From: a virus
Virus record (IMG/VR): IMGVR_UViG_3300042731_007874
Strand: one strand, 5' to 3'
DNA length: 64,000 nt
The notes under the pieces were generated by a model that saw nothing but the letters and a program-made list of their open reading frames with translations, searched no databases and was not told the origin of the DNA. Positions 8,466-48,146 of the stretch are shown here, one piece after another. The position numbers and the translations under genes are program-made. Numbering within the stretch: position 1 is the first letter of the stretch; the number at the start of each line of letters is the position of its first letter.

Positions 8466-8894
8466 TTAGTTTTCTTTTAAAACTTTAACGAATTCTAATC
8501 TTCTACAAACAGCTTGTGTAAGATTATATTTTTTATTTACTCTATTATTATCGACAGCAACAATATCTTCTCTTCTAACCCGAAATTTTACAATTACATC
8601 GCAAGCACAAATTTTATATATTTTGGCTGCTTTTAAGGAAGTATAGACATGGAGGCCTTTATTTATTGCTTGCTTTTCTAATTCTATTTGAGTTGGCTTA
8701 GAAGGTCTATCCACTTGATATACTTTCTGTTTGTTAAAATCCCAAGCAAAATTACGCCTAAATACAGATATATAATGACCTAAACACTCTTTCTCTAAGA
8801 TTTTATAAACATAAGCGAACTTCTTCCTATTACCAAACCATTTCTTTAGATCTTTTTTATTTTGTTTTTGATCTAATTTAATTTTTAAACACAT
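8466..8894 (-). CDS. MCL-family paralog 1 (subfamily A)
   Basis: MCL..KWFGNRKKFAYVYK..GLHVYT..KFRV..DIVA..QAVC.RLEF. Confidence 0.9.
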   Translation of the reverse strand: MCLKIKLDQKQNKKDLKKWFGNRKKFAYVYKILEKECLGHYISVFRRNFAWDFNKQKVYQVDRPSKPTQIELEKQAINKGLHVYTSLKAAKIYKICACDVIVKFRVRREDIVAVDNNRVNKKYNLTQAVCRRLEFVKVLKEN

Positions 8895-8909
8895 TAGTTT
8901 CTCCTTGTC

Positions 8910-9305
8910 TTAGACAACTTTTACGAATTCTAATCTTCTACAAACCGCTTCTTTGTGAATGTTGTTTATGGCCACTATGTCTTCTGCTTTTACTCGAAAC
9001 TTGACAATTTTATCAGATTCTTCTCTCCAGTTTTTAGCTTTTTCTAGATTAATAAAGACATGAATTCCAATATCTATCTGACCATATTCTAGTTCTTCTT
9101 TAGTTGGTTGGTTAGGTCTGTCTGCTTCAAAAGTCTTCTGGTTATCGAAGTCCCAGGTAAAAGAATAATGAATCCAAGATCTATAGAAATCTTCATCTTC
9201 CCATTTCTGAAGAATTTTATAAACAAAGATCTCTTTTCGATTTTTGATAAAAGTTTTAAGTTCTTTTTTATTATCTTTTTGGCTATAATGGATATCTAAA
9301 CACAT
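8910..9305 (-). CDS. MCL-family paralog 2 (subfamily B)
   Basis: MCL..EIFVYK..YRS..PTKEEL..GIHVF..EAVC. Confidence 0.9.
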   Translation of the reverse strand: MCLDIHYSQKDNKKELKTFIKNRKEIFVYKILQKWEDEDFYRSWIHYSFTWDFDNQKTFEADRPNQPTKEELEYGQIDIGIHVFINLEKAKNWREESDKIVKFRVKAEDIVAINNIHKEAVCRRLEFVKVV

Positions 9306-9533
9306 TTTATTTCCTTTTATTCTTCTTATTAACCAATAATTATATTGAAATCGCCAAAATAAAATTCATTTTCCATATCACAATTAATTGGTACTGATAA
9401 TTCATCTCGGACACCAGCTAAGACAGATTCTTCATCAAGCTTAACTTCTCTACGTTCGTAATATTTATTTGTGATCTTGTTTATGATCCAATATTCTAGT
9501 TTTAAAGTTCCATTAATTTCCATATTAGCTCCT

Positions 9534-9944
9534 TTAATCTTCAATAATTTTGACAAAGGTTAGCTTAGTACAAACAGCTTCACGATGACTATTATTTACA
9601 GCAACTATATCTTCTTTGTTTGCGCGAAATTTCACAATTGCCTCACCAAAATATATTTGATGTCTTTTGGCTTCTTTGAAAGAAGTATAAACATGAAGAC
9701 CTTTATTTATCTTTTTAAAACTCAATTCATATTCAGTAGGAGTATTAGGTCTGTTTTCTTGATATATTTTCTGTTCTTTAAAATGCCAAGTAAAATAATC
9801 AGGAAACCAGATAGATCTATAAAAAGACTCACCTGAATAATTTCGCAAAATCTTATAGACATAGGCGAACTTTTTTCTAGACCCGAACCATTTCTTTAGA
9901 TTTTTTTCGTTTTGGATTTGATCTGGCTTAATACGCAAACACAT
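9534..9944 (-). CDS. MCL-family paralog 3 (subfamily A)
   Basis: KWFGSRKKFAYVYK, YRS, GLHVYT, EAVC. Confidence 0.9.
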   Translation of the reverse strand: MCLRIKPDQIQNEKNLKKWFGSRKKFAYVYKILRNYSGESFYRSIWFPDYFTWHFKEQKIYQENRPNTPTEYELSFKKINKGLHVYTSFKEAKRHQIYFGEAIVKFRANKEDIVAVNNSHREAVCTKLTFVKIIED

Positions 9945-9959
9945 TGTTTTTTCTCTTTC

Positions 9960-11099
9960 TTAAGGAAGTCTAATATTTAGTTCTTTTAAACATTTATTAA
10001 TTTCTTCACTTGGGCCAAGATATTTTCCTGATGAATCTGAAATTTTTATAGTCTTTTTGTTATTAACTTTGGTTAATTTAATTACAATATTAAGAGGTTC
10101 TACTCCTTCAATATCGTTAGTAAGGTTAGTGCCAATTCCAAACTTTGGTGTAATCCAAGGCTTGTCTTTTAGATAACCTAGAATTTTACTAATTTTATTT
10201 ATATTTAGCGCGTCTGAAAAAATAATTTCTACGGGTTTCTTATTAAAAGTATTAGTAACTAGATCTATATATTCGAAAGGAGATCCAGAGTCTTGTCTAA
10301 ATGAAAGATTTTCTCCTAAAATAGGATCATTTTTAGACATACGAAAGAAAGAAGCTGAAGAGAAAGTATCTGTCAAGATTGTATTACTATGTTTGAAGGT
10401 TTCTTTCCATCTATCAATTGCAATATTATATGCTTTCTTATATCCATTTTTAGCCGCCTCGTACATATATAGTTCATGAGGCTGAGTTCCTACAATGGGT
10501 TTATTAAAGGTCATTCCCATTAAAAGATTACTTGTTGGACAATTATAAATTTGGTTAATTTGTTTTTGTACTTCTTTCGAATATCGGCGTCTCGTGCCAA
10601 ACTCAGAAAAAGAAATTGAATTTTCAAGAAAAACTTTTTTATTTAGTGCTTTTCTACTAGCCTTTATTAAAACCTTATCTAAACTTTCTGTAGAATTATG
10701 TTTATTGTAAACTTCTGATATGATTGCCATTAGTGGAACTTCTAGAAGAGTACAGTCATGCCAATATCCTTTTATGGATAAAGAAAGATTTCCAGAAATA
10801 TTTGTAATATTTATATCTACAGAAGAATTTTTAAAGTTAAAGTATTTAAGATAGGTTAAATATTGACTTGGGAAAAGATTTAGAAATCTTAGATAAGATA
10901 GTTCACAAGAGTCTAATCTCATAAATTTAATAAAATCATGAATTTCTTGCTTTATTTCTGTATACATCTCACTTGTAAATTTAGTTTTTCCTCTATTGAT
11001 AAAATTAAATTCTACAATGTCATTTTCTCCATATTTAATTGCATACCAATGGATAAAAAATTTATATAGATCATTATCTAGTAAAGATGTAATAATCAT
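9960..11099 (-). CDS. pncB: Nicotinate phosphoribosyltransferase
   Basis: SLLDNDLYKF, EFGTRRR, GTQPHE, RQDSG, FSDAL, FGIGTNLTND, NIVIKL, KISD. Confidence 0.92.
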   Translation of the reverse strand: MIITSLLDNDLYKFFIHWYAIKYGENDIVEFNFINRGKTKFTSEMYTEIKQEIHDFIKFMRLDSCELSYLRFLNLFPSQYLTYLKYFNFKNSSVDINITNISGNLSLSIKGYWHDCTLLEVPLMAIISEVYNKHNSTESLDKVLIKASRKALNKKVFLENSISFSEFGTRRRYSKEVQKQINQIYNCPTSNLLMGMTFNKPIVGTQPHELYMYEAAKNGYKKAYNIAIDRWKETFKHSNTILTDTFSSASFFRMSKNDPILGENLSFRQDSGSPFEYIDLVTNTFNKKPVEIIFSDALNINKISKILGYLKDKPWITPKFGIGTNLTNDIEGVEPLNIVIKLTKVNNKKTIKISDSSGKYLGPSEEINKCLKELNIRLP

Positions 11100-11110: not shown

Positions 11111-12040
11111 TTAAAAGTCAGTTGTTTTTGCTAGCTGCATCCCTTTTGCGGTTAATTCTTCAATAAAATCTTCTCCAAGACTTTCATAACCAGCAACAGA
11201 AGAGCTTGCATCTGTGAGTAGGACTATTTTCTTGATATGATCCTTCGTAAATTCATTAGAAAGATCTCGAACAGTGTTTGCTAAACAATGACTAAGAGCT
11301 TCTCCTGCCAATAAAATTAAATCTGCTTCTTTTAAAGCTCGGATTAGTCTTGTATTTAGTTGAGTTGTAGGATCAGATAGATCTTCTACTTCTGCCTTTA
11401 TGGCACTATAGTGTTCAACAAAAGGATTTAATCCTTTATTAATAAAGTTTATGTTATTCTTTGTTTTTAAGATCCATTCATTTAAAGATTCGTTTATGCA
11501 ATCTGTGATTGTTGCTCCAGAAGTTCCATGAAGGCAATGTTCTGGCCAGATACAAAGAGGGTATCTACCTTTTCTTTCTAGTTCTTTTGCATACTGAAGC
11601 ATTATTGATCGTAAAGAGGATATTGTAGGAGTCCAAATTCCTTCTTCTATGTTTGAAGAAGTAATAATAGTAGAAGGATCTGGATTTTTTCCTTCAGAAT
11701 TTTTCCACCAGATAGGATGACTTATATCCATTTTATGGTGTTGGTCTAGAGTAACAGAGATATCTGAAAGATCTTTTCCCATTCTTTTAATCATTTCAGA
11801 AAGTCTTTTCATATCTTCATCCGCGCCGCCAACATAAAGACTTCCGGTTGGATCACAAAAATCTCTTTGTGGATCAATTAATAATAGATGAATCTTTTCC
11901 ATTGTTTTTTCTTTGTTTTTGTTTTTGTTGTCTGGATCTTCAGAACAATATGAACACTCATGAGCCCAACCACATCTTCCACCATTTGAAAGCCAAGTAG
12001 ATGACTTAGGACATGATTCTAAATTATATTTATAGGGCAT
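11111..12040 (-). CDS. pncA: Nicotinamidase (isochorismatase/cysteine hydrolase family); real start may be MEKIHLL at 11902
   Basis: LLIDPQRDFC, WPEHC..G, KG, AGEALSHC; adjacent to pncB. Confidence 0.85.
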   Translation of the reverse strand: MPYKYNLESCPKSSTWLSNGGRCGWAHECSYCSEDPDNKNKNKEKTMEKIHLLLIDPQRDFCDPTGSLYVGGADEDMKRLSEMIKRMGKDLSDISVTLDQHHKMDISHPIWWKNSEGKNPDPSTIITSSNIEEGIWTPTISSLRSIMLQYAKELERKGRYPLCIWPEHCLHGTSGATITDCINESLNEWILKTKNNINFINKGLNPFVEHYSAIKAEVEDLSDPTTQLNTRLIRALKEADLILLAGEALSHCLANTVRDLSNEFTKDHIKKIVLLTDASSSVAGYESLGEDFIEELTAKGMQLAKTTDF

Positions 12041-19021: not shown

Positions 19022-20299
19022 TTATGAAATCTCTTCTAGATCCACATATTGATCATCATTTTTTCTGATATTTTCTAATTCGCAGAATTCATCACTTTTC
19101 CACTTAAAGAAGTCTATTAAGAGAGGATGTTCTACTCGAACAACAACTCCTTCAATTGGATGTGTCTTTTCTATTGGATCGGCTCCTGCTGCATATAATC
19201 TACACTTTTCTACAAGATCTATCTTATTTTGCAGAACAAAAGTTTCTAAATGAGGAACAGTTTTAAATCCTAGTTGTCCAGCTCTTCTTACCATTTGTGG
19301 CCAGGACAAATCTATTTCATATCCATCAAGACTAGTATAAGTTATTCGATAGATATAAATATCATATTTCTGTCCTAAATCTCCTCCTTTGTCAGTAGAA
19401 CATCCATATGAGAAAACAATATTTTTTCCATATTGTTTAGTTAAATCTTTATTTTCTGTATTATAGACCCCCATTAAGGGAATATCATTATCTTGATATC
19501 CAACAATCTCATAATATAGGGTTTCTCCTTTATGGAGACCAACTGATTTAATCTTTCGGTGAATGATATCTCTAAAATCTGTTTTTTTGTAATAACTGTC
19601 TTCTATCTTATTAACAAAGGTAACTCTTCTAGAACCGGAAACATATTTCCATTCGGGTTTTTTGAACTTATTAACTAAGTTCCAGAACCAATTTTTTCCT
19701 CTGACAGAAGATAGATGACGACCAGTACGGCCGCTAGTTCCATGAAGCTTTGTAGTTATTATGATAATTGCATCTTCTGGAATTCTTTTAATATTTGTTC
19801 TTAGCTGACTTGTATCAAAGTGTTGCTTAAAGCCAGGGAAATCAATTGAAATCTTAGCTTTTTTCTTCTGCTTTTTATTTCCCATTTGTCGACGGGTAGC
19901 TGGAGTGTAATACTTCTCGCATAACAGATGTCCATTAATATGAGTTATTTCGTCTCCATTTTTAAGTTTATTTGGGCCGCACCAGGCAAAAGATTCTATT
20001 GGTTGCCAAAATCCGTTAGAATATTCTCCTCTTAGTTTAATGGTCTCTACTTTTCTGTTAGGCCGAAAAAATCCTCCCATTGGTTCATTTGTTGAAGGAT
20101 CTTTTCTATAAAGCCGGGTACTCATACAATGTTCATGGCTTAATTGTCCATCAGTAGGAAAGTAAATTCCTAAATCCCCTTCTTGAAATTCTTTGCTAAT
20201 GATAATTTGGTAATTAGCGACCTGGGCTAAATTCAGTTTATCAGCATTTGGATGAGACCGGACATTCTTTAGTTTACATACAACTGCTTTATATGCCAT
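19022..20299 (-). CDS. RNA ligase (Rnl2/DRB0094-like) with N-terminal OB fold
   Basis: HPNADKL, KLRGEYSNG, KLHGTS (motif I), YYEIVG, EGVVVR, KWKS. Confidence 0.88.
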   Translation of the reverse strand: MAYKAVVCKLKNVRSHPNADKLNLAQVANYQIIISKEFQEGDLGIYFPTDGQLSHEHCMSTRLYRKDPSTNEPMGGFFRPNRKVETIKLRGEYSNGFWQPIESFAWCGPNKLKNGDEITHINGHLLCEKYYTPATRRQMGNKKQKKKAKISIDFPGFKQHFDTSQLRTNIKRIPEDAIIIITTKLHGTSGRTGRHLSSVRGKNWFWNLVNKFKKPEWKYVSGSRRVTFVNKIEDSYYKKTDFRDIIHRKIKSVGLHKGETLYYEIVGYQDNDIPLMGVYNTENKDLTKQYGKNIVFSYGCSTDKGGDLGQKYDIYIYRITYTSLDGYEIDLSWPQMVRRAGQLGFKTVPHLETFVLQNKIDLVEKCRLYAAGADPIEKTHPIEGVVVRVEHPLLIDFFKWKSDEFCELENIRKNDDQYVDLEEIS

Positions 20300-20316: not shown

Positions 20317-20763
20317 TTATAAAATCTCAACAAATTCTAATTTTCTACAAACTAATCTTTGAAAGTTAGGGGTTGGTTTTCTAAGATCTAGACAATTTAT
20401 TGGATTGTCTGCTCTATTTTCGACAGCAATAATGTCTTGTTTTTTTACTTTAAACTTTACAATACTCATACTAGAATAGTATTGACGTTCTCTAGCTATT
20501 TTAAGATTTGTATAAGTATGAAAGCCAAGATAAACTTCACCCTCTTCTAGATCTCTTTTAGTGGGTTTAGAGTTTACGTTTACACAAAATATTCTCTCTT
20601 TAGAAAAATTCCAAGTAAAGTGGCTATAAACCAAAGATCTATAGAAGTCTTCGTTTGGCCGCTTTTCTAAAATTTTATAAACAAAGATTTTTTCTTGATC
20701 ACCAAGAAACTCTTGAAGATCTCTTTTATTTTCTTTTTGGTCTCTTTTAATATACAAACACAT
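20317..20763 (-). CDS. MCL-family paralog 10 (subfamily B); start corrected to MCLYIK
   Basis: EFLGDQEKIFVYK, YRS, GFHTY, QRLVC. Confidence 0.9.
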   Translation of the reverse strand: MCLYIKRDQKENKRDLQEFLGDQEKIFVYKILEKRPNEDFYRSLVYSHFTWNFSKERIFCVNVNSKPTKRDLEEGEVYLGFHTYTNLKIARERQYYSSMSIVKFKVKKQDIIAVENRADNPINCLDLRKPTPNFQRLVCRKLEFVEIL

Positions 20764-22430
20764 ATTCTTCTTCTTTCTTTTGTGACAAATAAGAAGTAAT
20801 AAGAGAGAATAGAAGAACAACAGGAACAATAAAAAATATAGTTATAAGAAAAGCAAATAGAATTGATAAGATTTTAAAAATCTTAAAACAGAGAGAGAAT
20901 TTTGTTTTAAAAACATTATAGATCTTTTTGACGGGAGTGAATATTTTCATTTTATCCTCGATCTGTTCTAGATTTTAGTTCATTTAGATAGGTGTTATAG
21001 TTCAAGTAGCTTTTTGCTTCTTCGTCGAATAAATGATCTTCGTCATACCACATATCTTCTACATCTGGCCCGCCACCTCCATATCTTAAAACTATCCCTT
21101 CTTTAGCTCTTCTTTCTATATACTTTATGATGTTTTTTAGATGACTTGTCTCTAAGTCTTTAATTAGGGTTTTATTTCCATTTTTATCTGTGTGGTATTT
21201 CATTTTATTCTCAAAATATCTGAGGGATGTTCTCCTGTTTCTTCTCCCCACTGGCTAACTGGAGCTAGTTCTTGACCAGCCCAGTTATACATTCTGCCAC
21301 AATCACAAGAATTTGTGAATCCATCTAAATATATTTCTTCTCCACATTCACATCTACCAATTCTTGGGGTAATACATAAACAGCTATGTTTTTGTACTCC
21401 TTTGTTGATATATCTATCTGGATTATTAATACATTTTTGGTAGTTAAAGTAAGCAGCTGCATTGAGTTCTTCTAGTTCTCCACCCTCGTTACAAGGAAAA
21501 GAATAGCTACATCCTTTTTCTCCTTTTCTTTCAAATTCTAAACAGAAGAAGATAGAAGTTTTACTTTCTCTATGTTGTATAATTTCCATAATCATTGCAG
21601 TGGCTCAACATATACAGAAAAACTATCTTTTTTCAATCCAATTTCTTTCTTTATTGTTGAAAAGATATGGTTATTTGGAAAACTAGATTCTCCTATATAT
21701 GCAACTGCCTCTAAAATAATAGTTGAATTAAAACTCTTTGAAAACCATAAAGATTGATTCTCATAATGATCATATAGTCGGCTATTGATAAGATTTTTGG
21801 CAACTCCGGCCTTAAATTCGTCTTTTTCTGAACAGACCGCAAATGCTATTCGATGACTAGTTAAATCTACTCCCGCAATAATCCTTTTTGACTTATTGCC
21901 AAAATCAATAGTACTAAAATCAATTTCGAAATACTTTACTTTATTCTCTTTTGCTATTTTTCTTAGTTCCTTAATTCTCTTTGATTTCTTCAAAGACTCT
22001 TCTCGATATTTTCTGTACTTCTTTTGGCTTCTATTAATGCTTTCTTGAATATCCATTTCTTCTCCTTTATTTTGATGAAGATTAATTTAGTGTAAATAGC
22101 TTCCTAACTAAGTTGTGTCTTTACCAACTATTATAAAATCTGATAATTTTTATATCTTTAGGCAGATCCTTTATATTTATCTCAAAACCTTGTTCGTTAT
22201 CTGTATTATATGGCTTTTTACAATCTGCAGGAAGATCAACTACTATTCCTGAAGGATCTGGATCTATATAATTAAAGAATTCTAGTACTTCTTTTGGAAC
22301 ATCTACTTCGGCATCAATACAAGCTTTATAAGCCTTGAACATTTTTTTAAAGTCTTCATCAGGCGGTTTAATGCCGAGAATATGTGTACTCGTTCCCATT
22401 TGAATATCTCCTTCTCCTTTTAGAAGTTAG

Positions 22431-22511
22431 AGGATGGTGTGGGGCTCGAACCCACGAAGCTTACGCAGAAGATTAAAAATCTTCTCCCTTTGGCCACTTG
22501 GGTAATCATCC
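22431..22511 (-). tRNA. Class II-type tRNA body with anticodon UUU (nominally Lys)
   Basis: Acceptor GGATGAT/ACCATCC, D-stem CCC/GGG, anticodon arm GAAGA-TTTTTAA-TCTTC, 12-nt variable region, T-arm GTGGG-TTCGAGC-CCCAC; no encoded CCA. Confidence 0.8.
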
Positions 22512-27954: not shown

Positions 27955-28383
27955 TCAGTAATTAATAACTCTTACAGCAAGACCTTTTCCTTTTGCAATA
28001 TTAATCATATGGTTAGTACCTTTTGATTTTCCATCCCAGAAAGCAATAAGAGCATCTCCGTATTTGGCCATTTGGATATTTCGTTCTGGTCCAGCTTTGG
28101 ACCAGTACTTAGTGCCGTCTCTTCGAGTTCTAATTTCTGAAAGAGGCTTATTTGTAATATCGTCCCAATTAGCAGGATAAACCTTTATATAGAATCCTCT
28201 GGCTTCAGCATAGTCTTCTCCAAGTTTATCTGCACCATTAGCTCCGCCGCTAACAATAATAATTTTGTTCTCTTTTCTAATTTGTTCTTTTAAAAGCAAA
28301 TCTGCTTTATGAAAAAGAAGTTTTTTGTTATTAAAATCTCTTCCGCCAGCAATGATAACTTTGAAATTCACTATATCCTCCAA
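27955..28383 (-). CDS. SLOG/YspA-like (DUF2493) protein
   Basis: IIAGGRDF, VSGGANGAD, AGPERN, AFWDGKSKGT. Confidence 0.85.
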   Translation of the reverse strand: MEDIVNFKVIIAGGRDFNNKKLLFHKADLLLKEQIRKENKIIIVSGGANGADKLGEDYAEARGFYIKVYPANWDDITNKPLSEIRTRRDGTKYWSKAGPERNIQMAKYGDALIAFWDGKSKGTNHMINIAKGKGLAVRVINY

Positions 28384-29893: not shown

Positions 29894-30361
29894 TTAGTAT
29901 TTATAAACGAATACTGGAACACTTGTTTTCTCAATAAAACTTTGAATGGTTTTCTCAATCACAACCCAGTCTCCTCCAGCGAGCCCGCAACCAAACATTG
30001 GAGCATAAATATGAGCCTGATTATCTCTTGCCTGCAAAAATACTCGTTCTAGGCAAAAATTCAGATCCATATAGGACAAAGGAATTCTATTATTTCTTCC
30101 TCCAAACCCATCTTGAGCAATCATATTTGCAATAGTAATGTTTTCTTGTGGGATCTTAATAAATTGAGTTTCTCCTAGTACATAGTTATGCAGTTTTCGG
30201 TAGGATTTTTCTGGTTCTGTCCAAGTCTTGCTTATTGCAAGGACGAATCCAGCTCCCCATCCTCCTCTGTTATTACAAACATGAGGAATAATAATTTTGT
30301 TGGTTTTGGCCGCTTCTTGAGCCGCCACGATAACATCACCTTGTCGATAAACTATTGACAT
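29894..30361 (-). CDS. Macro domain (Poa1p-like ADP-ribose hydrolase)
   Basis: GDV, HVCNNRGGWGAGF, PMFGCGLAGGDW. Confidence 0.88.
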   Translation of the reverse strand: MSIVYRQGDVIVAAQEAAKTNKIIIPHVCNNRGGWGAGFVLAISKTWTEPEKSYRKLHNYVLGETQFIKIPQENITIANMIAQDGFGGRNNRIPLSYMDLNFCLERVFLQARDNQAHIYAPMFGCGLAGGDWVVIEKTIQSFIEKTSVPVFVYKY

Positions 30362-31545: not shown

Positions 31546-32005
31546 TTAGGCCCATTTACAGAGGGCTTTTTTAGGATCTCTAATTTCTTCTATTGATTCA
31601 TAGAAGAAGTCTCTCCATGTATTTTCTGGCAACCCAGTAAATAACATTAGATTAAGAGGATATCTTTCACTATCAGGTACATCTTCGAAAGTCATCTCTA
31701 AATAGAAAGGTTAGCTTTCCTAAAGCAATTGCCATTCCTAGTTCAACCATAACTCCTTCATCAGGAGGAGTTCCATTTACAATTGCAAAAATTGCATCAC
31801 TCTTTCGAACATCTTCGTAATCTTTTTGTCCAACTATATAGGCCCATCCTGGCTTGCTAGTTAGATCCTCCTGGTTATTGCGCTCAAATGGTTCCCAAAC
31901 CTCTAAGCCAAGTAGCTCTAGCTCCTCGATGATTGGAGGTAATAGTCTTTCCTTTGCTTGCTTTGAAAAGCTGTAAGGATTAGCTAAATAAATTGTCTTT
32001 TTCAT
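31546..32005 (-). pseudogene. Nucleoside 2-deoxyribosyltransferase-like gene with a +1 frameshift at about 31675
   Basis: MKKTIYLANPY...PPDEGVMVELG...RRCT continues after one extra base as DSERYPLNLMLFTGLPE...KWA*. Confidence 0.75.
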
Positions 32006-32024
32006 AATTTCTCCTTTTGGTTTA

Positions 32025-32651
32025 TTATAGAAATGAATCTCGAATTGAATTGTCAGGCATATAATAGATATTATAATCGCCCGCATCTAAGTAATAAATA
32101 TCTGGATATTTGTCTCTTATCTTTTTGTACATACCTTTGTCGTCATATCCAATTAATTCTTTAATAGTAAATTGGCAGCCTATTTGCTCTTGGAAACCTA
32201 GATAATCTTCAACCATTTTAAAAGTTGTTTTATGGGTAACAAGGTGGGTTATTCTTATTTTTGTTAGGTTTGATAAATATTCTAAGTATTCTTTATTATT
32301 CTCTAGTAAATCACTTGAAAACACACATCTATTTATCTTTTCCCAGAAAGATGAAAGCTTGAACTGTTCTCGTGTATGAACGTCTACTAACATATTGAGG
32401 TTGTTTGTTATTTTAAAGAACTTATTCCACCATTCAATATGATGATGATATTTATAGAGACAATCACCGCCGCCAGATAGAGAAACTTTTCCTTTATTTT
32501 TGTTCTCACTTAAAAAGTTCTCTAGTTTCTTCCAGTTTGTCTTCTCATTAACATATTCAAGTTCATGTCCTTTCCATATACAATACCAACAGTTGGCTCT
32601 ACATCCAAAATTAGTTATTACAGATATATTTGGGCAAGCTGTCCGCAACAC
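32025..32651 (-). CDS. Radical SAM protein
   Basis: CRANCWYC (CxxxCxxC), SLSGGGD. Confidence 0.75.
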   Translation of the reverse strand: MLRTACPNISVITNFGCRANCWYCIWKGHELEYVNEKTNWKKLENFLSENKNKGKVSLSGGGDCLYKYHHHIEWWNKFFKITNNLNMLVDVHTREQFKLSSFWEKINRCVFSSDLLENNKEYLEYLSNLTKIRITHLVTHKTTFKMVEDYLGFQEQIGCQFTIKELIGYDDKGMYKKIRDKYPDIYYLDAGDYNIYYMPDNSIRDSFL

Positions 32652-33574
32652 AATCCAGCCTCTTCACATTTAGCAATTGCATCAATTACAACAGGAACAC
32701 CTGCTTCTCTAAACTGATTGCCGATTTCAATCAGCTTATCATAGTTTGAATAGTTTGCTACTGTCTTTAGCTCATTCCCTTTTGCATTATTTGTACTATT
32801 AAGTGGAATAAGTTTAACAGTAAACTTGTCACCTCGAAGCCCCATTTTCTTTAGCTTTCCTACAGAAACTTCTACTCCTTGCATAACAATAAAATTTAAT
32901 GTAACTGTTCGGCTTGTTATTTTTTGTTTGTTCACCTCTGATACTATTTCAGGCAGAGTTATTACATCCGCGCCGCCAAATAACTCTTTTCTCTTATTCT
33001 CGTCTGTTGAATTACAAGAAATTTGTAAATGAAGTCTTCCATCATAAGTAGATTCTTTAAAATCTATTACTTGGCTTAACACATTTGCTTTTCGGGGAAG
33101 TATTGTATTAAAGCAAGGAAGCCATTTAAAGTCACGTCCTTGATGTTCTGATATTTGAGGTAGAAGTTTCATTGCATCAAGAACATTTTCTACATTCCAT
33201 GCAGGCTCGCCCATTCTAGCAAACCCTATCTTTACTTTGTTGCTTTGAGTAACATAAGGAGTATTTTTAAGTATACTAATAACTTGATCTAGGATTTCAT
33301 CTCGTGTGAGATTTCCCTTAAAAGGTAAAGGGGCAACATCACAAAACTGACAATTATGAATACATCCACGTTGTGTACTTACTGTTAGTAACCATTTTTC
33401 TTTATAGGGAACAAGATGTTTCCATATTACTTGTGGATCTTGAGTCTCTCTTACTATCTTATGAAGCTTGCCGTCTACTGCGACGTCTCTCATTTCAGTA
33501 GATTCAATTATGTAACCGTTCAAGTCACTAATAAAGATTCTACCACTAGGTAGATAGAGTACATCTTTAATCAT
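32618..33574 (-). CDS. RlmN/Cfr-like radical SAM enzyme
   Basis: STQRGCIHNCQFC, ARMGEP, LQIS, KLIPLN, C-terminal CGQL. Confidence 0.8.
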   Translation of the reverse strand: MIKDVLYLPSGRIFISDLNGYIIESTEMRDVAVDGKLHKIVRETQDPQVIWKHLVPYKEKWLLTVSTQRGCIHNCQFCDVAPLPFKGNLTRDEILDQVISILKNTPYVTQSNKVKIGFARMGEPAWNVENVLDAMKLLPQISEHQGRDFKWLPCFNTILPRKANVLSQVIDFKESTYDGRLHLQISCNSTDENKRKELFGGADVITLPEIVSEVNKQKITSRTVTLNFIVMQGVEVSVGKLKKMGLRGDKFTVKLIPLNSTNNAKGNELKTVANYSNYDKLIEIGNQFREAGVPVVIDAIAKCEEAGLCCGQLAQIYL

Positions 33575-34004
33575 TGTTTACCTTCTCCACGTTCTTTATC
33601 CATTTTGGGACTGGTTGCCATTTTCTTGCCATATTATCAATAGTTGATTTAGGAACTCCATGGATATTTCTTTCAACACAGATTTTTGGATCTGCAAAGA
33701 CTTCAATAATTTCACAGCTATATCCCATTGTTTCTGCGATTCTGTAATAAGGAATCCATTCAGTTGTTGTAACATTTGTATTGTCTATTACAATAAGTTT
33801 TTCTTTGAGAGTGGTAATAAAATACAAAAATGTCTGTAAACAATGTATGTGTGCTTCTCCAATAAGACCAGGATCAAATTTGTATTCTCCATGCTTATTT
33901 ATGAAATACTTATCAGCAGAACATATTACTGCATCTGGGTAGTTCTTTTTAACAAAAGTACTTTTCCCAGCGCCTGGCAAACCTCTCATAATTATTACTT
34001 TCAT
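33567..34004 (-). CDS. P-loop kinase (AAA_33/polynucleotide-kinase-like)
   Basis: MRGLPGAGKST Walker A, DNTN, RNIHGVP. Confidence 0.85.
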   Translation of the reverse strand: MKVIIMRGLPGAGKSTFVKKNYPDAVICSADKYFINKHGEYKFDPGLIGEAHIHCLQTFLYFITTLKEKLIVIDNTNVTTTEWIPYYRIAETMGYSCEIIEVFADPKICVERNIHGVPKSTIDNMARKWQPVPKWIKNVEKVNND

Positions 34005-35534: not shown

Positions 35535-35567
35535 ATCTTTTCTCCTTTCCCTATAAATACTTATATT

Positions 35568-36255
35568 TACGTTGGATCTAGTATTAGATAGTCAAAATAG
35601 ATATTTTTGGTAAGCTCCAGTAATGAATTTATACTTTTTCTCTCATATATTCTGTAATTACAGAGTTACATTCTTTTAGTAACCCAATAAGTTCATGCCA
35701 ACAACTATCAGTAGCAGGAAGACTTTCAAAGGTCCGCCTTAGTTCTGGATAACAAATCCAATTAATAGAAACCTGACAGACCACTGCTGCTCCTATTAGT
35801 TTTGGATTCTGGTGAACATGGCTACTCATTCCTTCTTTACAATAATGACAAGAACATTTTTCTATTTTTTCATATCTTTTTCCTTTTCCGGAGCGCCGGG
35901 TAATGGTCTTGTTAGCTCCTTATAGATTTCCTAACAGGAGACCATTCTTTACTTCTATCTCTCTTACAGAGATAGTACCAGTCATATATCAGTCCTTTTC
36001 TATGGAGGTCGAGAAGAAGTTTCCATTCACCTTTGCCTGCAAATGTAGTCCAGCCTTGTACCAGTCTGCTTATCTTCTTATATATTCTTTTATTCATTAC
36101 ATTGTCTCCTTTCTATATAAATATTTATATAGCTCCAAATACCAAGACTAGAGATCTCTGAGGGCCAAGATCAATACTTGTACATTGGATCTAGTAGTAG
36201 ATGGTCAAAATACACTGAAAACATAACAAATACACTAATTACATTGGATCTAGTA
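35568..36255. repeat. Three copies of the 16-bp motif TAC(A/G)TTGGATCTAGTA at 35568, 36181 and 36240
   Basis: Direct sequence match; copies 1 and 2 extend to about 30 bp of similarity. Confidence 0.7.
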
Positions 36256-38150
36256 AAATATGAACCAAATACACTAGGCAAAGCAAAATTTTCCCTCTTA
36301 TCTCTCTCTCAATCCAATCAACGGAATCTTACAATTGTATTTGGCCGAGGCCCGAAGGGCCGAGGCAGGGGACGCTCTACGGAGATAGAAACGCTCTTGT
36401 CATTATAGGTGATCAACATATGTGGGATACTGGTTAGGAGCTGAAAACGACTGTCCGGATATGTTTTCTTAATAATATTAAACATATAGGCCATCAAGAG
36501 ATGATTATTACATGGGGCTTGGTCTAAAACTAAACTCAACTAATAATGACATTTCAATTCTAAGATACCTAGAAGCTCTTATAATCCATTTCTCTTCTTT
36601 AAGAGTACCGTCTATCCTAAATTTAGTTTTATAGGATTCTAGAGGTATTCTCATTATTCTGATAGAAGATTAGAGTTCTCTTTATGGGCCATCAGGGAAG
36701 AAGTTTCTTTCAAAAGACAAATATACATATTTAGGAGTAGTTTCTTCTTTAGGATCTTATATTCAGGGAATTATATTATTAGGATAGTATAGCTTCTTCA
36801 GGAAATACTATAGTCAAGAAGATCCTTAAGAGCATAACTAACACTTTTTAAACTTACTAACATTGAACATATAATAATATGTATGTTTGTAAATAATAAG
36901 TATAATGTATAATAGGTTAAGCTCTTATAGCTTCTAAATCCGTATATGCGTTTAAATAGATAATAAGTAGTTAGTTAGAACTTTGGGTCTTCTTCTTGGC
37001 GGGTTTCTTGTTCATCAAGATCACTCTTTAGCCAATCAATATATTCTTGTTGGCATTTCTCACTACAAACTACCTGAATATCTTCGTCCAGATATTGAAC
37101 AAATTTCTTTCCACACATACAACATCTACGCAATTCCATGACATTTTCTCCTTGTTTGCTATTTTCCTACAGTAATACTGTACGAATTCTTATTGTTGAC
37201 CAAACCATGACCACAAAAGCCATAAAAGCCACAAAAAATAATATGTAATAATTTCAGGTGTTTGGTTTGGTTTTGCTATATACAGCTATACAGCCGAGAT
37301 ACAGCTTTTTTAAACAAAACCAATTCCACTAATATTAAACACGAATATCGTGTTACGAAATAATATTCTTATGTTTAGGATAGACTATTTTAGCAGTATC
37401 AGGGAACATGTTCTTACATTTCTCTCGAACTAAGCCTAGGTACCAGACATCAGAACATACGCGATGCTTTCCTGTCTCTAGCATTCCAAAGACAAATCTT
37501 TTCCTTCCATATCCTCTTCCTCCACACCCTTGCATCTCTTCTGGATTTGACGGATTAAGAATATAAATCTCACCATCAACTATGACATAATCTTTCTTTT
37601 TAAGAAACTCCAGGTCAAAATTACAACCAAAGCAGAGTTTCTTCTCAAGCAATTCTGGCCCTGAAAGCCAATTCTTAACAACTTCTCTTTTACCACAATA
37701 TTTACAGGTAAATGTTTTCTGCATATCTTTTTCCTTTCTTTAGTGAATCAATTCACCAATAAATTTCATTATTCCAAATATAATAACTACTACTATTACG
37801 GCGGTTGTCATGAATTAATTACCTCCATCATCACCGGCATCAACCTCGTCATCAATCTGAATGACGATAGGATTGTCAGTGTCTTCGATAAGGATATCAA
37901 TATCAATGTCATAACAACCAAGTACGATCAGACTAACAATAATAAAGATTATTGTTTTCATTTTTGTTTTCCTTTCAGTTGAAATCAAACATACGAACGA
38001 ATTCTATTCTTCTGTCCTTGATTTCTTCAAGGACAATATCAGAAGCATGAGTTCTTTCCGGCGCGCCGGACAAAGAATAATACAGCTCTACCAGTTCTTT
38101 ATCGTCTAACTCTTCTAAACCATTGGTATATTCTTCCTGACAGTCCATAA

Positions 38151-39383: not shown

Positions 39384-39800
39384 TTAGTTTACGACTCTGA
39401 CAAAAGTCAGCTTACGACAGACAAGACTTTCAAAATTCAGCCCAAAGCAACAATTATTCTCAACAGCAACAACGTCTTTCTTATCCACTTTAAATTTTAC
39501 AATTACTCCGTCACAATAGAATCTCTGAAGCTTGGCAGACTCTAAATTAGTATAGACGCAATATCCTTTATAAATTTCTCCCTTCTTCAATTCTTCTTCA
39601 GTTGGCCTTGAAGATCGATCAATCTGGAATACTTGTTGTTTAGAGAAATCCCAAATACAAGACTGATAAGAAAACCTATAATAATTTTTACTCGAACATT
39701 CTCTTAGAACTTTATAAACATAAACTTCTTGTTGATCTCCAAGAAACTCTTGAAGATCTTCTTTATTGTCTTTTTGACTTGACTTAATTTCTATTGACAT
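39384..39800 (-). CDS. MCL-family paralog 16 (divergent, subfamily B)
   Basis: EFLGDQQEVYVYK, PTEEEL, GYCVYT (His lost), SLVC. Confidence 0.85.
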   Translation of the reverse strand: MSIEIKSSQKDNKEDLQEFLGDQQEVYVYKVLRECSSKNYYRFSYQSCIWDFSKQQVFQIDRSSRPTEEELKKGEIYKGYCVYTNLESAKLQRFYCDGVIVKFKVDKKDVVAVENNCCFGLNFESLVCRKLTFVRVVN

Positions 39801-40912: not shown

Positions 40913-41314
40913 TTAATTTGAAAACTCTACAAAAGTCAGCTTTTTGCAAACTAATTCTTCGTGAGCCTCATCAACAGCCACAATGTCTTCTCGTTCAACT
41001 TCGAATTTAACAGTTTTTCTACCATAGAAATCCCAACCCATAAAGTCGTCTTTGAAAGAAGCATAGACATGAAGTCCTTCCGCTATCTCTCCAGATTCCC
41101 GCTCTTCTTCAGTCGGTTTAGAAGATCTATTTATTTCAAATATATTGTGTTTATTGAAATCCCAAATAAATTCCCCATGACGTGGAGATCTATAAAAATT
41201 TTCCCATGAACTTTTTACTACAATTTTATAAACAAAGACCTTATCACGATTACCAACAAAATTTTGAAGGATTATATCGTTCTCTTCTTGGCTTTTGTTA
41301 ATGCTTAGAGGCAT
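40913..41314 (-). CDS. MCL-family paralog 17 (divergent, subfamily B); start corrected to MPLSINK
   Basis: NFVGNRDKVFVYK, YRSP, GLHVY, EELVC. Confidence 0.85.
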   Translation of the reverse strand: MPLSINKSQEENDIILQNFVGNRDKVFVYKIVVKSSWENFYRSPRHGEFIWDFNKHNIFEINRSSKPTEEERESGEIAEGLHVYASFKDDFMGWDFYGRKTVKFEVEREDIVAVDEAHEELVCKKLTFVEFSN

Positions 41315-43351: not shown

Positions 43352-44026
43352 CTATATAGGTTTTTCTTTATTCTCTGCTCTTTTTCTTCTCATATAGCAC
43401 TTTGCACATAAATTACGACTCAGGTGTTGCTTTTCTTCTCCACAGTCTTCACAGATAATAAGATTCTTCTTTTTTTCTATGTAATCTTTTTTATAACATT
43501 TTTGACAAAGGCCAAGACCTTCATGGTATTTTTCTTCTCCGCAAGATTTACAGACAATTAACCTTCTCTTGTTTGGGTTTTTTCTAGACAGCCTAGAGTA
43601 ACAAGCATTACATAGGTCTTTAGTGAAAGGGTGTTTTTCTTCTCCACATTCTTTACAGATAATAACCTTAGACTCTCGTTGGTGTTTTCTATAGCAAGAG
43701 TCGCATAAACCTCTGCCTTTCGGAGGTCTATCTCTTTTGCATCTTTTGCAATTTATTAATTTTCTATCTGGATGATATTGTGTCTTTATTTTTTGTCGTT
43801 TTATCTCAACATGGATATTTTTATGACACTCCTCGCAAACAACCATGCATTTAGATAGTTCTTCCTCTCTCCTCTCTTGGCTCCACAACCAAACTTCTGA
43901 AGCAACTTTCTGACTGGGGTCTTTGTGATGGATCTGTAAAGACTCGCTAGATCCACAAATTTCACAGGGGCCGTGTTCTTGAAGCCAGTTTGTTTTTCGT
44001 TCGTTTCTTTTTTGTTTAGTATTCAT
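43352..44026 (-). CDS. HNH endonuclease-domain protein with tandem CxxC..LCxxCY zinc fingers
   Basis: CEICGS...IHHKDP...CEECH, then four CxxC...LCxxCY repeats. Confidence 0.8.
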   Translation of the reverse strand: MNTKQKRNERKTNWLQEHGPCEICGSSESLQIHHKDPSQKVASEVWLWSQERREEELSKCMVVCEECHKNIHVEIKRQKIKTQYHPDRKLINCKRCKRDRPPKGRGLCDSCYRKHQRESKVIICKECGEEKHPFTKDLCNACYSRLSRKNPNKRRLIVCKSCGEEKYHEGLGLCQKCYKKDYIEKKKNLIICEDCGEEKQHLSRNLCAKCYMRRKRAENKEKPI

Positions 44027-44351
44027 TAATACCTCCTAAAAAGAGGTTATCAGCTTATTCTCTAAGAGTCAAGGAGGGGGCAGCTAACCCTTGACCCCCA
44101 GGGATGTCCTGAATTACTTGCTAGGTATGTATAAAATTTTTCCCATTTTGCCCCCTATTAAGAAATTTATGTTATAGTATAAGTAACAGAACCCTCTAAG
44201 CCTCTCTTTGAAGCTCAATTCTAGAGGGTCTTTTATTATTCGGCATAATCTCCACCTTAATTCTCTAAAATCAAAGTTTTAAAAAATTTTCTCCTTGAAA
44301 CCGCCATATATAAGAAAAATTATTTTTCTACCAACCCGCCCAATAATAATA

Positions 44352-44380
44352 TTGACAATCATCTCTTGATGGCCTAATTT
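44352..44380 (+). promoter_or_regulatory. Sigma70-like promoter for the rightward genes
   Basis: TTGACA-N17-TAATTT upstream of 44412. Confidence 0.55.
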
Positions 44381-44640
44381 AAGGAAGTGAAGAATCAAGA
44401 AAGGATCACCAATGTTTGATGAAATGTTTGTTTCTCACATCCAACCAAACAAAGACTATATCCAATGTTCTCTTTATTCAGAATCCGGCCAAAACCTAGT
44501 TACCTGGGTTCTGAAAGAAACAGCCCACGAGGGAAAAGAAGTTAGACTAAAAGGATCAGATCAGACTTGGACAGTAAAGGAAGTTTACAAGAGTACTGTA
44601 AAGGGGAGTGTATTAATACAAATGAGGGATCAATATAAGT

Positions 44641-45283: not shown

Positions 45284-45473
45284 GATAGAAACAGAGAGTT
45301 TTACGGAACCGGAACCGAACATCGTCAAACAGCTTGATTGTTTAATTGTAAGTGATAATGAAGTAAACAAAAGTTATCCTTATGTTATTTCTTTGAGAAG
45401 AGACCGTTATAATACTTATCGGTTCTATGTTTTGTGTCGGTCTCGTATATTAATATAGAGGGAGCAAACAACA

Positions 45474-46175
45474 ATGAGAATAGAAACAGTAGAAGATTTC
45501 AAGAGGGCGTTATTAAGACTAGATGATATCTTTGATATCCCTATAGATGACCCCAGGAGGGATGAGAGGGCAGCTCTGATTGATGCAATTGAAGAATACG
45601 AAGACGAGCACTGTAGTATTCAACCTCCGACTGAGGAGGAAGCTAGGGCCTTTAGAAGAGAACAGGAGCTTCTCGTTGAGGATCGAGGTCTTCCTCTACC
45701 TGTTGAGGTTCCTCCAGTGCCATTAGTGTTGCCACCAAGAAAACAACATGAGTTTGATTTTTTTGATAAATCTCCTGATAATTTAAAGGCTGTTGAGGAT
45801 CGTTTAATGAAAGTAATAGAAGAAGCATGTCGAAACCAGAGGGAGTGTTTTATTAATAAAATAAAGGACTCTTTTGAAGAAATTGATAAGTTTGCTAGAG
45901 AAAACCAGGAAGAAATTTTTATTTTAAATGATTATCGGGGCTCTAAGGTCAACTCAGCGGAATATGCTGAATCTTGGATTCATAAAGACACGATTCGGTT
46001 GATTTACGACGAATATGAAAGAGGAGAAGACTATAGTCTTTATCCTTTTGATATTCCTATTAAATATATAAATAATTTAGATGGATGGTTAGAGGATTTA
46101 AGTAAGGAGAAAGAAGAGAGGGATAAAAAGAGAGAGGAAGAGAAGACTGAGGCTTCATTAGGGAGTGGAATATGA
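45474..46175 (+). CDS. Protein with a HigA-antitoxin-like N-terminal region fused to an unknown domain
   Basis: IETVEDFKRALLRLDDIF...ALIDAIEEYEDEH..I.PP resembles the HigA N-terminus; no HTH follows. Confidence 0.5.
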   Translation: MRIETVEDFKRALLRLDDIFDIPIDDPRRDERAALIDAIEEYEDEHCSIQPPTEEEARAFRREQELLVEDRGLPLPVEVPPVPLVLPPRKQHEFDFFDKSPDNLKAVEDRLMKVIEEACRNQRECFINKIKDSFEEIDKFARENQEEIFILNDYRGSKVNSAEYAESWIHKDTIRLIYDEYERGEDYSLYPFDIPIKYINNLDGWLEDLSKEKEERDKKREEEKTEASLGSGI

Positions 46176-46603
46176 AAGATTCAAATGTACCAAAACTAAG
46201 GTTTCCTTTGAGGGATTATTTACAGGATTATAATGAAGATCGTGATGTTGATCTTACATGTCAGACCATAAAGATGGTAAGAACTCGTAAAGAGCATGAT
46301 TGTCATTTTGGTCAAATAGATGGTAAATTACACATTATACCAAAGGGAGAGTTAGCGGTAAAAGACACTGCGTTGGTAGATCATGAATTTTGGGGAACTT
46401 GTTATACCTGTATTCCTTGTTTAGATAAATGGATAGCTGAGTTAAAAAGTGAGACTTGTGAATGTTGTGAATATTGGGATTTTAAGGACGAAGACGATTC
46501 TGATCAGGCTTTGTGTTTAAACCCCAGATCTAAAGAATATAAGAAATTAGTAAATTATGATTTCACTTGTAATTGTTTTAAGGACTGTGAATAAGGAGAA
46601 ATA

Positions 46604-47596
46604 ATGTCAATTGATTTTCCAAGAGCGTGGCAGCTAGCCAAAGAGACTAGTTTTGAAGACCATAATCCTAAGTGTAGTTATGCGCGGACCAAAGGGGGTT
46701 TACTTTGTGATTGTGAAGTTTTAACAAAACACCCAGAATATTTATCTGATGTTTTTTATGGAAAAGATGGTATTATAATAAGAAAGACCAAGAGAATGAT
46801 TAATTGGATTTGCCAAAGCAATTTATGTGACACGACAGGGCTGGAGCAAATTAAAGAAGTTTGCGAAGAAGATGGAGGCTGTTATGTTCCTTATACGGTA
46901 ATTCCTTTTGAGAATAATACTTCTGGATTTCCTGTTGATGGAATTAATGTTTTTTATGGATCGGTAACTTGGATCAACAAGCTTTCTGAAGAGAAGAGGG
47001 CTGGGTTATTCTTTGACAAGGAGAAGTTTACCTATCTTTACTGGGGAGAAAAATATAGGGATCTTTTGGTCAATGATGACTTTAAGGTTATTACTTTAAA
47101 AGAATTTGTAACTTCGAAAGAATATAACAACATAACGAGCCGAATGAACAGAGAAATCTTTTTTGTTAGACCAGCGGCCGATAATAAAGCCTTTGACGGA
47201 CATGTCTATCAATCATTTCAGGTATTAGATTCTATTGGAGGAGATCCCGATTATCTTTCGAGTTTGCCAATAATCATAGCTTCTCCAAAAATTATTCATT
47301 TAGAATATAGGTTGTTTTTTGTAAACGGTAAAGTTTCTTCTGCTTGCCAGTATAAGTACCGGGGAAGTCTGTCTGTAAGTAAGACAATTCCGCCAGATTT
47401 AATTCCTTGGGCAGAAGACCACCTTAAAGATTTTCATGATGTGTTTGTTGCCGATGTCGCCATTATTGAAGATAAAGAAGGGTTTAGTGGTTATCGGTTG
47501 CTTGAATTTGGCTGTGCAAATGCTGCGGGATTTTATGGGGTAGATGTTAAAAAAGTAACAAAAGATATTAATAAGTACTTAGGAGAATTAAGTTGA
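46604..47596 (+). CDS. ATP-grasp domain protein (R2K-like)
   Basis: FVRPA.DNKAFDG, EYRLFFVNG, FVADVA, LLEFG..N.AGFY. Confidence 0.75.
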   Translation: MSIDFPRAWQLAKETSFEDHNPKCSYARTKGGLLCDCEVLTKHPEYLSDVFYGKDGIIIRKTKRMINWICQSNLCDTTGLEQIKEVCEEDGGCYVPYTVIPFENNTSGFPVDGINVFYGSVTWINKLSEEKRAGLFFDKEKFTYLYWGEKYRDLLVNDDFKVITLKEFVTSKEYNNITSRMNREIFFVRPAADNKAFDGHVYQSFQVLDSIGGDPDYLSSLPIIIASPKIIHLEYRLFFVNGKVSSACQYKYRGSLSVSKTIPPDLIPWAEDHLKDFHDVFVADVAIIEDKEGFSGYRLLEFGCANAAGFYGVDVKKVTKDINKYLGELS

Positions 47597-47720
47597 AACA
47601 AGATCTTAAAGAAGAATTTAAAAGAATAGGGTCTATCTTATTAGGAATTTTATTTATATTATTTATGATGATTATATTTTATTCTATTTTTAATACTTTA
47701 ATATAAACAAGGAGAAGAGA

Positions 47721-48146
47721 ATGTGTTTATGGATTAAACAAGATCAAGAAGAAAATAAAAAGAATCTAAACAAATGGTTTGGATCTAGAAAAAGATTTGC
47801 ATATGTTTATAAAATTCTAAGAAAATGGCCAGAGGAAAACTTCTATAGATCTCCTGTTTATGATTTTAAATGGGATTTTAAAAAACAAAAAGTTTTTCAA
47901 GTAGATAGACCTAATAAACCAACCAAAGAAGAACTAAATTATGGAGAAATACATAAAGGACTCCATGTCTATACTTCTCTTAAGAAAGCTAAAGAAAACC
48001 AAAATTTTTCTTGCGATACAATAATTGAATTTAAAGTCTCTAAAGAAAACATCGTTGCGATTGAAATTAATTGGTCTGACAAAGAAGATAACTTTCAAGA
48101 ATTAGTTTGTCGAAAGTTAGAGTTTGTTAAGGTTGTTGAAAATTAA
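47721..48146 (+). CDS. MCL-family paralog 18 (subfamily A, plus strand)
   Basis: KWFGSRKRFAYVYK, YRSP, GLHVYT, QELVC. Confidence 0.9.
   Translation: MCLWIKQDQEENKKNLNKWFGSRKRFAYVYKILRKWPEENFYRSPVYDFKWDFKKQKVFQVDRPNKPTKEELNYGEIHKGLHVYTSLKKAKENQNFSCDTIIEFKVSKENIVAIEINWSDKEDNFQELVCRKLEFVKVVEN

Follow-up and report, generated by a model that had tools for sequence, protein, structure and literature searches.

A dispersed multi-copy family of small phage proteins with remote homology to the RIIB C-terminal domain and a predicted ADP-ribosyltransferase-like fold

The RIIB protein of phage T4 counteracts RexAB, has toxic effects if it is expressed on its own, and is detected by the gasdermin-CARD and Tmn systems (10.1101/2023.05.28.542683; PMC13001434; PMC13716836). 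It has about 300 residues or more, comprising an N-terminal helix-turn-helix (HTH), a middle region and a C-terminal domain at residues ∼205-295 (PF26926), and its gene is single-copy and paired with rIIA. Phage T4 also encodes Alt, ModA and ModB, which exemplify several diverged paralogs of the ADP-ribosyltransferase (ART) fold within one large phage genome, presumably with different host targets (PMC7824862). Here we describe a family of 18 paralogous genes in a 64,000-nucleotide stretch of DNA (the window) from IMG/VR virus record IMGVR_UViG_3300042731_007874. Profile comparisons place the encoded proteins in the superfamily of the RIIB C-terminal domain, as a branch of stand-alone proteins that are remote homologues of RIIB and not RIIB itself, and structure prediction gives them an ART-like fold. 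Like the T4 proteins, they would thus be several diverged ART-fold paralogs in one large genome; they differ in that the multi-copy phage ARTs keep R-S-E or related catalytic residues, whereas this family lacks the triad and reaches ∼25 copies.

The window corresponds to bases 56,529-120,528 (minus strand) of the 120,530-bp record, which CheckV rates as 63% complete, and its proteins recur on a 184,481-bp contig that is a longer version of the record. The DNA comes from a wetland metagenome, and the stretch was found in only one DNA run, probably that of the source sample; among the runs listed as containing it there was no RNA run. As judged by sequence comparison, the phage is uncultured and far from any cultured phage. 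The closest cultured terminase is that of Moorella phage MTATph1, which is at most 33% identical to the window's large terminase, and megablast of the terminase region against cultured phages gave no match. Similarly, tblastn of the 47721 copy (copies are named by their first coordinate) and of two distant family members against 50,697 phage records gave no match, and a scan of IMG/VR viral contigs found no relative besides the record itself. For comparison we used five contigs from two JGI metagenome samples (L001, L002, L006, L007 and L008), all syntenic with the window except L006. Residue numbers throughout are those of the 47721 copy.

All 18 open reading frames (ORFs) that a first-pass annotation of the window had listed as a family are present and homologous (Table 1). 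Seventeen are full-length, at 131-148 amino acids (aa), in agreement with the 130-148 aa first given for most of them, and one 85-aa copy carries an internal deletion. Used as a query against the 120.5-kb record, the 47721 copy gives 18 matches (E 9e-96 to 2e-13), all of them within the window. A 19th element, missing from the earlier list, is a decayed remnant that came to light when the window was scanned for repeats and all its stop-to-stop pieces were searched with a hidden Markov model (HMM). Sixteen copies begin with MCL, and the other two with MSI (39384) and MPL (40913). In two copies the real start is internal to the listed ORF, namely 20317-20763 (MCL, start at 20763) and 40913-41314 (MPL, start at 41314). 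Each copy was also seen to have the setting first described for most of them: it is tightly packed against unrelated neighbour genes, lies on the local coding strand, and has its own purine-rich ribosome-binding site 5-10 nt upstream. Together the copies occupy 7,413 nt, or 11.6% of the window (the first estimate was roughly 7 kb and over 10%). Five further MCL proteins (P0123, P0134, P0139, P0157 and P0168) lie on the 184-kb contig outside the window, and the whole genome probably contains about 25 copies, and at least 18.

The relationship to RIIB emerges from searches in both directions. In hhalign, a 170-sequence family profile aligns with 120 rIIB C-termini over 81 columns (95.6% probability, E 1.1e-8), pairing YK(V/I)L with AWKVV, a conserved Arg with its counterpart, GxHV with GLHV, and DxVA with RDVV. 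When the whole T4 genome is compared in six frames with the family profile, the sole match is to rIIB codons ∼207-290 (E 1.5e-6). Conversely, an HMM of the rIIB C-terminus matches three window copies (E 2e-4 to 1e-3). In addition, the paralog profile matches the single T4 RIIB sequence at E 0.003, and one family member matches PHROG 36818, ‘RIIB lysis inhibitor’. Structural comparisons give a similar picture. Foldseek against viral models yields 12 matches at E<1e-3, several of which are RIIB proteins, and in the ESM Atlas the template modelling (TM) scores to rIIB (PF26926) and DUF7666 clusters are 0.64-0.68. Phage_T4_Y00F, which was suggested by a protein atlas feature search (0.86-0.87), was set aside, as it fell below the 0.9 lead threshold and the T4 whole-genome search matched rIIB only.

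With the RIIB domain the family shares an aromatic-Lys pair ([YW]K) on strand 1, a conserved Arg, a GxHV motif that precedes a helix, and K.V..DxV, so that K31, R63, G80, H82 and D110 all have RIIB equivalents; both are also phage accessory proteins. There are also differences. The family proteins are single domains, and the window copies have neither an HTH (which is matched at residues 7-50 of T4 rIIB) nor any other Pfam domain. There are 18-25 copies per genome rather than one, and S44 and E71 are additional conserved positions. Moreover, RIIB cannot have the N-terminal Cys of the family, because its domain is internal. Neither rIIA nor a canonical rIIB was detected in the 120-kb record, which is 63% complete and for which the single-sequence search with T4 RIIA is insensitive. 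The second structural relative, DUF7666 (PF24703), is also present in viruses and has a predicted-structure TM score of 0.66-0.67 to the family; its Pfam model finds no match at E<=10 in a six-frame search of the 120-kb record, and one distant family member matches it at E 0.097.

The first-pass annotation recognised no named family, which is largely correct. Pfam, PADLOC and PDB sequence searches with the copies and with both alignments gave nothing significant. Part of the family has, however, already been clustered in a phage protein catalogue as PHROG 13450, which carries no functional annotation and for which the sources consulted record no multi-copy behaviour. This entry matches 36 of 122 wide-family members at E<=1e-3 (best E 1.1e-8), and one of four window copies compared with it (the other three give no match); the remote kinship to rIIB likewise qualifies the original statement.

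The family has the form that was first suggested for it, that of a fixed scaffold with variable loops. Among 69 close family members, the mean column entropy is 1.14 bits for predicted strands and 2.06 bits for loops. Five segments are hypervariable and prone to indels: residues 35-40, 45-48 (following YRS), 73-79 (preceding GxH), 93-98 (following the A-helix; 3.5 bits) and 115-126 (preceding ELVC; 2.9 bits), the last four being the places named in the first-pass annotation. When 1.84 billion representative proteins are searched exhaustively with a profile, the family extends to 117 clusters at E<1e-3. These proteins are 115-165 aa long, apart from P0018 (275 aa, a tandem duplication) and P0116 (206 aa), are only 20-30% identical to the window copies, and are metagenomic in every case where the source was looked up. 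No longer (fused) forms of the family were found, which is a weak negative. An unrelated metagenomic phage contig (L004, JGI 3300041085) carries three dispersed members within 3 kb (7648-10799), and so the multi-copy habit recurs outside this phage group.

Seven residues, Cys2, K31, S44, R63, E71, H82 and D110, are near-invariant across the ∼120 diverged clusters, which suggests a functional site at these positions. K31 is present in 167 of 170 sequences, preceded by Y or W at position 30, and G80 is found in all of them (100%). The other frequencies are 96% for H82, 92% for V129 (156/170), about 90% for R63, and 80-90% for each of S44, E71, A90 and D110. M1 is conserved in at least 90%, and Cys directly follows the initiator Met in 157 of the 170, with replacements that are mostly small (Ser, Gly, Pro). 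In the window copies, the codons for Cys2 and Leu3 vary synonymously (TGT/TGC; TTA/TTG/CTA), so the constraint is on the protein and not on a DNA or RNA signal. Cys2 and His82 are both missing in three sequences, representing two independent events, too few to serve as evidence of coupling.

Two AlphaFold2 models of the 47721 copy were made, one from an alignment of the 18 paralogs and one from an alignment of 122 sequences. Their secondary structures agree, with confidence (pLDDT) values of 90.2 and 94.5, and the N-terminus is modelled as part of the fold (strand 3-4, helix 9-20; pLDDT 94-95). Both models were compared structurally with 48,161 chains, and the top rows listed for both are ART-superfamily entries (Z 3.3-6.5, with 79-103 residues aligned over residues 8-141). 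The best listed match is BC2332 (PDB 2AUA; Z 6.1/6.5), followed by a Tpt1-type enzyme with ADP-ribose (Z 5.3-5.5), Arr (Z 5.1-5.3) and diphtheria toxin (Z 4.7-5.3). Further ART matches listed are TreTu, TreX, PARPs, pertussis and cholera-type toxins, ParT, MbcT, Tne2 and CC0527. The BC2332-like and CC0527-like proteins are families of SCOP d.166.1, the ADP-ribosylation superfamily (PMC3000352), and BC2332 had itself been predicted to be ART-like from its structure (PMC3024214). We consider an ART-type fold likely for the family, and it is the uniformity of the match list, rather than the Z values, that carries this assessment. In the literature searched, we found no description of the RIIB domain as ART-like.

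To map the family strands we used strand order and resemblance to the diphtheria toxin motifs YHGT, KGFYST and VEYI. On this mapping K31 would correspond to the His or Arg of ART strand 1, H82 in K-G-(L/F/I)-H to the nicotinamide-stacking Tyr, and position 127 to the catalytic Glu, and the hypervariable 115-126 loop would occupy the position of the ART target-recognition (ARTT) loop. The family's KG(L/F/I)H with its following helix resembles the KGFY or KGIY nicotinamide-stacking strand of diphtheria toxin and the PARPs. Compared with the H-Y-E or R-S-E residues of ARTs, the family would thus have Lys in place of His or Arg, His (H82, with Y84) in place of Tyr, and a variable Glu position. For the invariant N-terminal Cys, no equivalent is known among ARTs.

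Starting from what is established here, i.e., paralogy, RIIB-C homology, the predicted ART-like fold, the conservation pattern, purifying selection and copy turnover (see below), we infer a ligand, catalysis, targets and expression timing as follows. The copies would be made from an accessory, probably early, gene block. Each would have one conserved pocket, formed by the free N-terminal Cys2 together with K31, S44, R63, E71, H82 and D110, that binds or processes nicotinamide adenine dinucleotide (NAD+), ADP-ribose or a related nucleotide. Paralog-specific loops would steer each copy to a different host target, the main targeting loop being 115-126, ahead of the strand that would match the ART catalytic-Glu strand. 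In this proposal, to which we give about an even chance, a stand-alone RIIB-C/ART-like family expanded by birth and death constitutes an array of effectors specialised for host takeover or counter-defence. Such a role, which the first-pass annotation had also proposed, is plausible because of the homology to RIIB-C, with its anti-RexAB activity, and because the accessory neighbours include Gad2-family and NAD-salvage genes (see below). By analogy, the toxicity of RIIB, its antagonism of RexAB and its sensing by defence systems would fit a host-directed activity of the family.

Several points weigh against this proposal. The Z values do not exceed 6.5 and are thus under the search tool's caution line of 8, and the structure comparison called for in the first-pass annotation, which matched RIIB among viral models, found nothing at E<0.001 when both models were run through Foldseek against the PDB. 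The canonical ART triads (H-Y-E, R-S-E) are absent from the family, and Glu occupies the presumed catalytic position, 127, in 48 of the 69 close members (70%) but in only 23 of 83 distant ones (28%). Inactive ART-like modules (PARP13, TASOR, IcmQ and a CNFy domain) are among the structural matches, and so the fold does not imply catalysis. The location of K31, H82, D110 and C2 in an NAD cleft is a putative one, as these residues were placed by strand order and by resemblance to diphtheria toxin motifs. The homology to RIIB transfers no mechanism, because the biochemical function of RIIB is unsolved, and the genomic context is a general accessory-gene region with no specific operon.

Of all the features of the family, the N-terminal Cys is the least explained, and its strict position after the initiator Met recalls N-terminal-nucleophile (Ntn) chemistry, a Cys2 being shared with Ntn amidotransferases and SRAP/YedK. 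A bolder version of the pocket hypothesis, which we think quite unlikely, is that the invariant Cys2 of an ART-like nucleotide pocket reacts covalently with the ribose of NAD-derived molecules, for example by forming a thiazolidine with the open-chain aldehyde of ADP-ribose. SRAP reacts likewise with abasic sites. Neither an Ntn nor an SRAP fold is among the structural matches listed for the two models. If the covalent version were true, the family would consist of covalent traps or processing enzymes of a new kind, acting on NAD/ADP-ribose immune signals or modifications, and the loops of the ∼25 paralogs would adapt each to its own signal or target. An NAD/ADP-ribose-linked answer to the 70-year-old rII puzzle would follow, as RIIB shares the K/R/H/D pocket.

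The main rival to the effector proposal is that the proteins are non-catalytic binders, that is, RIIB-like decoys or inhibitors in which an ART-like scaffold presents paralog-specific loops to host defence or membrane proteins. The conserved residues would then serve folding or a common partner rather than a ligand. In its favour are the genetic role of RIIB as a RexAB inhibitor and its physical recognition by Tmn (PMC13001434), the confinement of most variation to loops that are conserved within orthologs, the lack of the ART catalytic triad, and the inactive ART-like modules among the structural matches. It must also account for the retention, at 20-30% identity, of seven polar or charged residues and the N-terminal Cys, a pattern more typical of an active or ligand-binding site, and we regard it as unlikely, though considerably less so than the other alternatives.

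Comparison with the related contigs shows how the copies evolve. Flanking genes are 70-94% identical between the window and its relatives, with dS of 0.29-1.04 and omega (dN/dS) of 0.05-0.19. Three retained orthologs have omega values of 0.28 (20317/L008), 0.15 (39384/L007) and 0.11 (27497/L006), and their dS is like that of the flanking genes. The family had been described in the first-pass annotation as retained and diversifying, with a comparison of loop and framework dN/dS as the check. Retention is borne out by the intact frames and by these omega values. Diversification, in the sense of ongoing positive selection, is not, since the dN/dS in the three ortholog pairs (a small sample) is 0.16 for loops and 0.20 for the scaffold, the latter also being far from 1. 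Loops that evolve no faster than the scaffold in orthologs are what one would expect of paralogs that each keep a specificity of their own. Among the paralogs of the window, synonymous sites are saturated (median proportion of synonymous differences, pS, 0.62), too far for an analysis of positive selection by site.

The sites occupied by copies differ between the window and its relatives. In L001, two copies follow each other between a response-regulator gene and its neighbour, a site that is empty in the window; another copy takes the place of a zinc-finger gene of the window; and a tandem array of three stands in for the window's pair of one full and one deleted copy. The 39384 and 40913 copies are missing from L001. 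Upstream of the DUF932 gene, at the site of the remnant in the window, L002 carries two intact copies. The family tree is star-like, with a median terminal branch of 0.63 and only four clear ortholog pairs, and copies at the same site are often not orthologous. The copies are therefore old and individually constrained, including their loops, and undergo birth, death, replacement and decay at different intergenic sites; the loop diversity between paralogs derives from old duplications together with gain, loss and replacement, while loops are conserved within orthologs.

This turnover could also be that of selfish mobile genes which, like the free-standing homing endonuclease genes of T4, spread into intergenic sites and persist chiefly by propagating themselves. 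Occupancy differs at several such sites in phages with 70-94% identity of the flanking genes, the insertions are ORF-sized and precise, and same-site copies are as diverged as random paralogs (pS 0.65, compared with a median of 0.62 for random paralogs and ∼0.45 for the flanks). The decayed remnant, the deletion derivative and the three dispersed members on the unrelated contig L004 all point the same way. However, Pfam and PHROG searches of the copies revealed no motif of a nuclease, recombinase or transposase (no HNH, GIY-YIG or LAGLIDADG match), and the structural matches are to ART-superfamily entries rather than to nucleases. Homology is confined to the ORFs and ends where they end; neither repeats nor conserved sequence of the kind that a transposon-like cassette requires were found in the flanking DNA. 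The retained orthologs are under purifying selection in their loops as well, and recent spread predicts near-identical copies, whereas the most similar pair inside the window is only ∼59% identical. We consider selfish spread to be very unlikely as the explanation for the family, although the site polymorphism hints at some selfish component.

Even less probable, in our assessment, is that the proteins are packaged in the virion and injected with the DNA, like T4 Alt, the N-terminus being a head-targeting or processing signal. The first 20 residues are relatively conserved within this phage, but across unrelated phages only M-C-L is conserved and residues 4-25 vary. The N-terminus is confidently modelled as an integral part of the fold, there is no LxE-type cleavage motif, and the genes are in a non-structural block on the strand opposite the terminase block. 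Finally, decaying junk duplicates without current function, as the one internally deleted copy and the one remnant might suggest, are hardly credible in view of 17 intact frames, omega values well below 1, and key residues that are invariant in very distant relatives.

The effector proposal draws part of its plausibility from the surroundings of the copies. All copies except 47721, as well as the remnant, lie in a minus-strand block (142-44026) that is divergent from a plus-strand block containing a tRNA cluster and the terminase. The neighbourhood looks like a typical accessory, counter-defence region with an NAD flavour. The genes for nicotinate phosphoribosyltransferase (NAPRTase) and an isochorismatase-like protein possibly form an NAD-salvage pair, flanked by family copies. 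The gene at 7377-8456 gave no match with local Pfam, but on the basis of its ortholog it is probably an anti-Gabija-type gene. Gad2 is an anti-Gabija protein. A macrodomain considered at 29894-30361 was not confirmed by Pfam. Promoter-like sites are not enriched in the window (94 versus 89.8 expected) and are uninformative on transcription units.

Table 1. Family copies and neighbouring genes in the window.
Feature	Position	Strand	Remarks
Family copy, 142 aa, MCL	8466..8894	-	Tandem with 8910 copy
Family copy, 131 aa, MCL	8910..9305	-	Tandem with 8466 copy; weak phrog_13450 match, E 1e-4
Family copy, 136 aa	9534..9944	-	Directly downstream of NAPRTase gene; L002 positional counterpart not orthologous (pS 0.65)
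Family copy, 138 aa	12042..12458	-	
Family copy, 141 aa	13764..14189	-	
Family copy, 134 aa	15326..15730	-	
Family copy, 141 aa	16290..16715	-	
Family copy, 133 aa	17536..17937	-	
Family copy, 141 aa	18581..19006	-	Directly downstream of RNA ligase gene
Family copy, 148 aa	20317..20763	-	Longest loop before ELVC; L008 ortholog, 69% aa identity, omega 0.28
Family copy, 136 aa	23230..23640	-	
Family copy, 144 aa	25361..25795	-	
Family copy, 147 aa	27497..27940	-	Directly downstream of YAcAr/SLOG gene; ortholog P0138 in L006
Family copy, 144 aa	34831..35265	-	
Deletion copy, 85 aa	35277..35534	-	In-frame internal deletion (roughly residues 21-76), without the K31, S44, R63, E71 region; probably inactive
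Variant copy, 138 aa, MSI	39384..39800	-	Cys2 to Ser, His82 to Cys; 82% ortholog in L007
Variant copy, 133 aa, MPL	40913..41314	-	Without Cys2; 80% ortholog P0004
Family copy, 141 aa	47721..48146	+	Sole plus-strand copy; basis of both structure models
Decayed C-terminal remnant, 33 codons	2770..2868	-	Stop codons before it; just upstream of DUF932 gene; E 1.4e-8
Nucleotidyltransferase	662-1636	-	
359-aa protein (PHROG 4400)	7377-8456	-	Adjoins family copy; 86% ortholog in L002 with Pfam PF26128 (Gad2)
NAPRTase	9960-11099	-	Strong match
Isochorismatase-like (nicotinamidase-like) gene	11111-12040	-	Weak match
RNA ligase	19022-20299	-	
YAcAr SLOG gene	27955-28383	-	
Nucleoside 2-deoxyribosyltransferase	31673-32086	-	
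AAA_33 kinase	33567-34004	-	

Some other features of the window are recorded here. The stretch 35550-36950 contains ∼1.3 kb without a convincing long ORF, has a 36-nt motif in three copies (35568, 36181 and 36240) and no Rfam match, and is partly conserved in L001. The gene at 43352-44026 (minus strand) encodes a 224-aa protein of repeated zinc-ribbon units, with three DNA repeats ∼100 nt apart, and borders the divergent intergenic region 44027-44640. The tRNA cluster of the plus-strand block consists of four genes (Asn, Pro, Thr and His) at 49973-50299, and a separate 82-nt tRNA-Lys(UUU) is encoded on the minus strand at 22430-22511. The large terminase (59830-63021, plus strand; 1,063 aa) has terminase matches at residues 73-234 and 654-972, split around a LAGLIDADG-like stretch at residues 430-525, and therefore probably contains an intein. 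A 677-aa protein (56525-58558, plus strand) has a short, sub-threshold protein-kinase-like stretch at residues 377-423.

RIIB is among the oldest genes of molecular genetics, and while its biochemical function is still unsolved, it is now seen as an anti-defence factor that is sensed by several immune systems. What we describe is a greatly expanded variant of this known, functionally unsolved phage domain, its main interest lying in the small, numerous and varied forms, as handles on the RIIB domain, and in the unusual conserved N-terminal Cys. The family provides a large natural panel of minimal, soluble-looking, single-domain relatives of the RIIB domain, each of ∼140 aa and with sharply defined conserved residues, and the question of what the RIIB domain does thereby becomes one of concrete binding and mutagenesis work on 140-aa proteins. 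At ∼25 copies, or roughly 6% of the 184-kb genome, it is among the larger lineage-specific expansions reported for phage. With its specialised, conserved loops and its gain, loss and replacement of copies, the family offers a tractable model of how phages build and reshuffle their effector repertoires.

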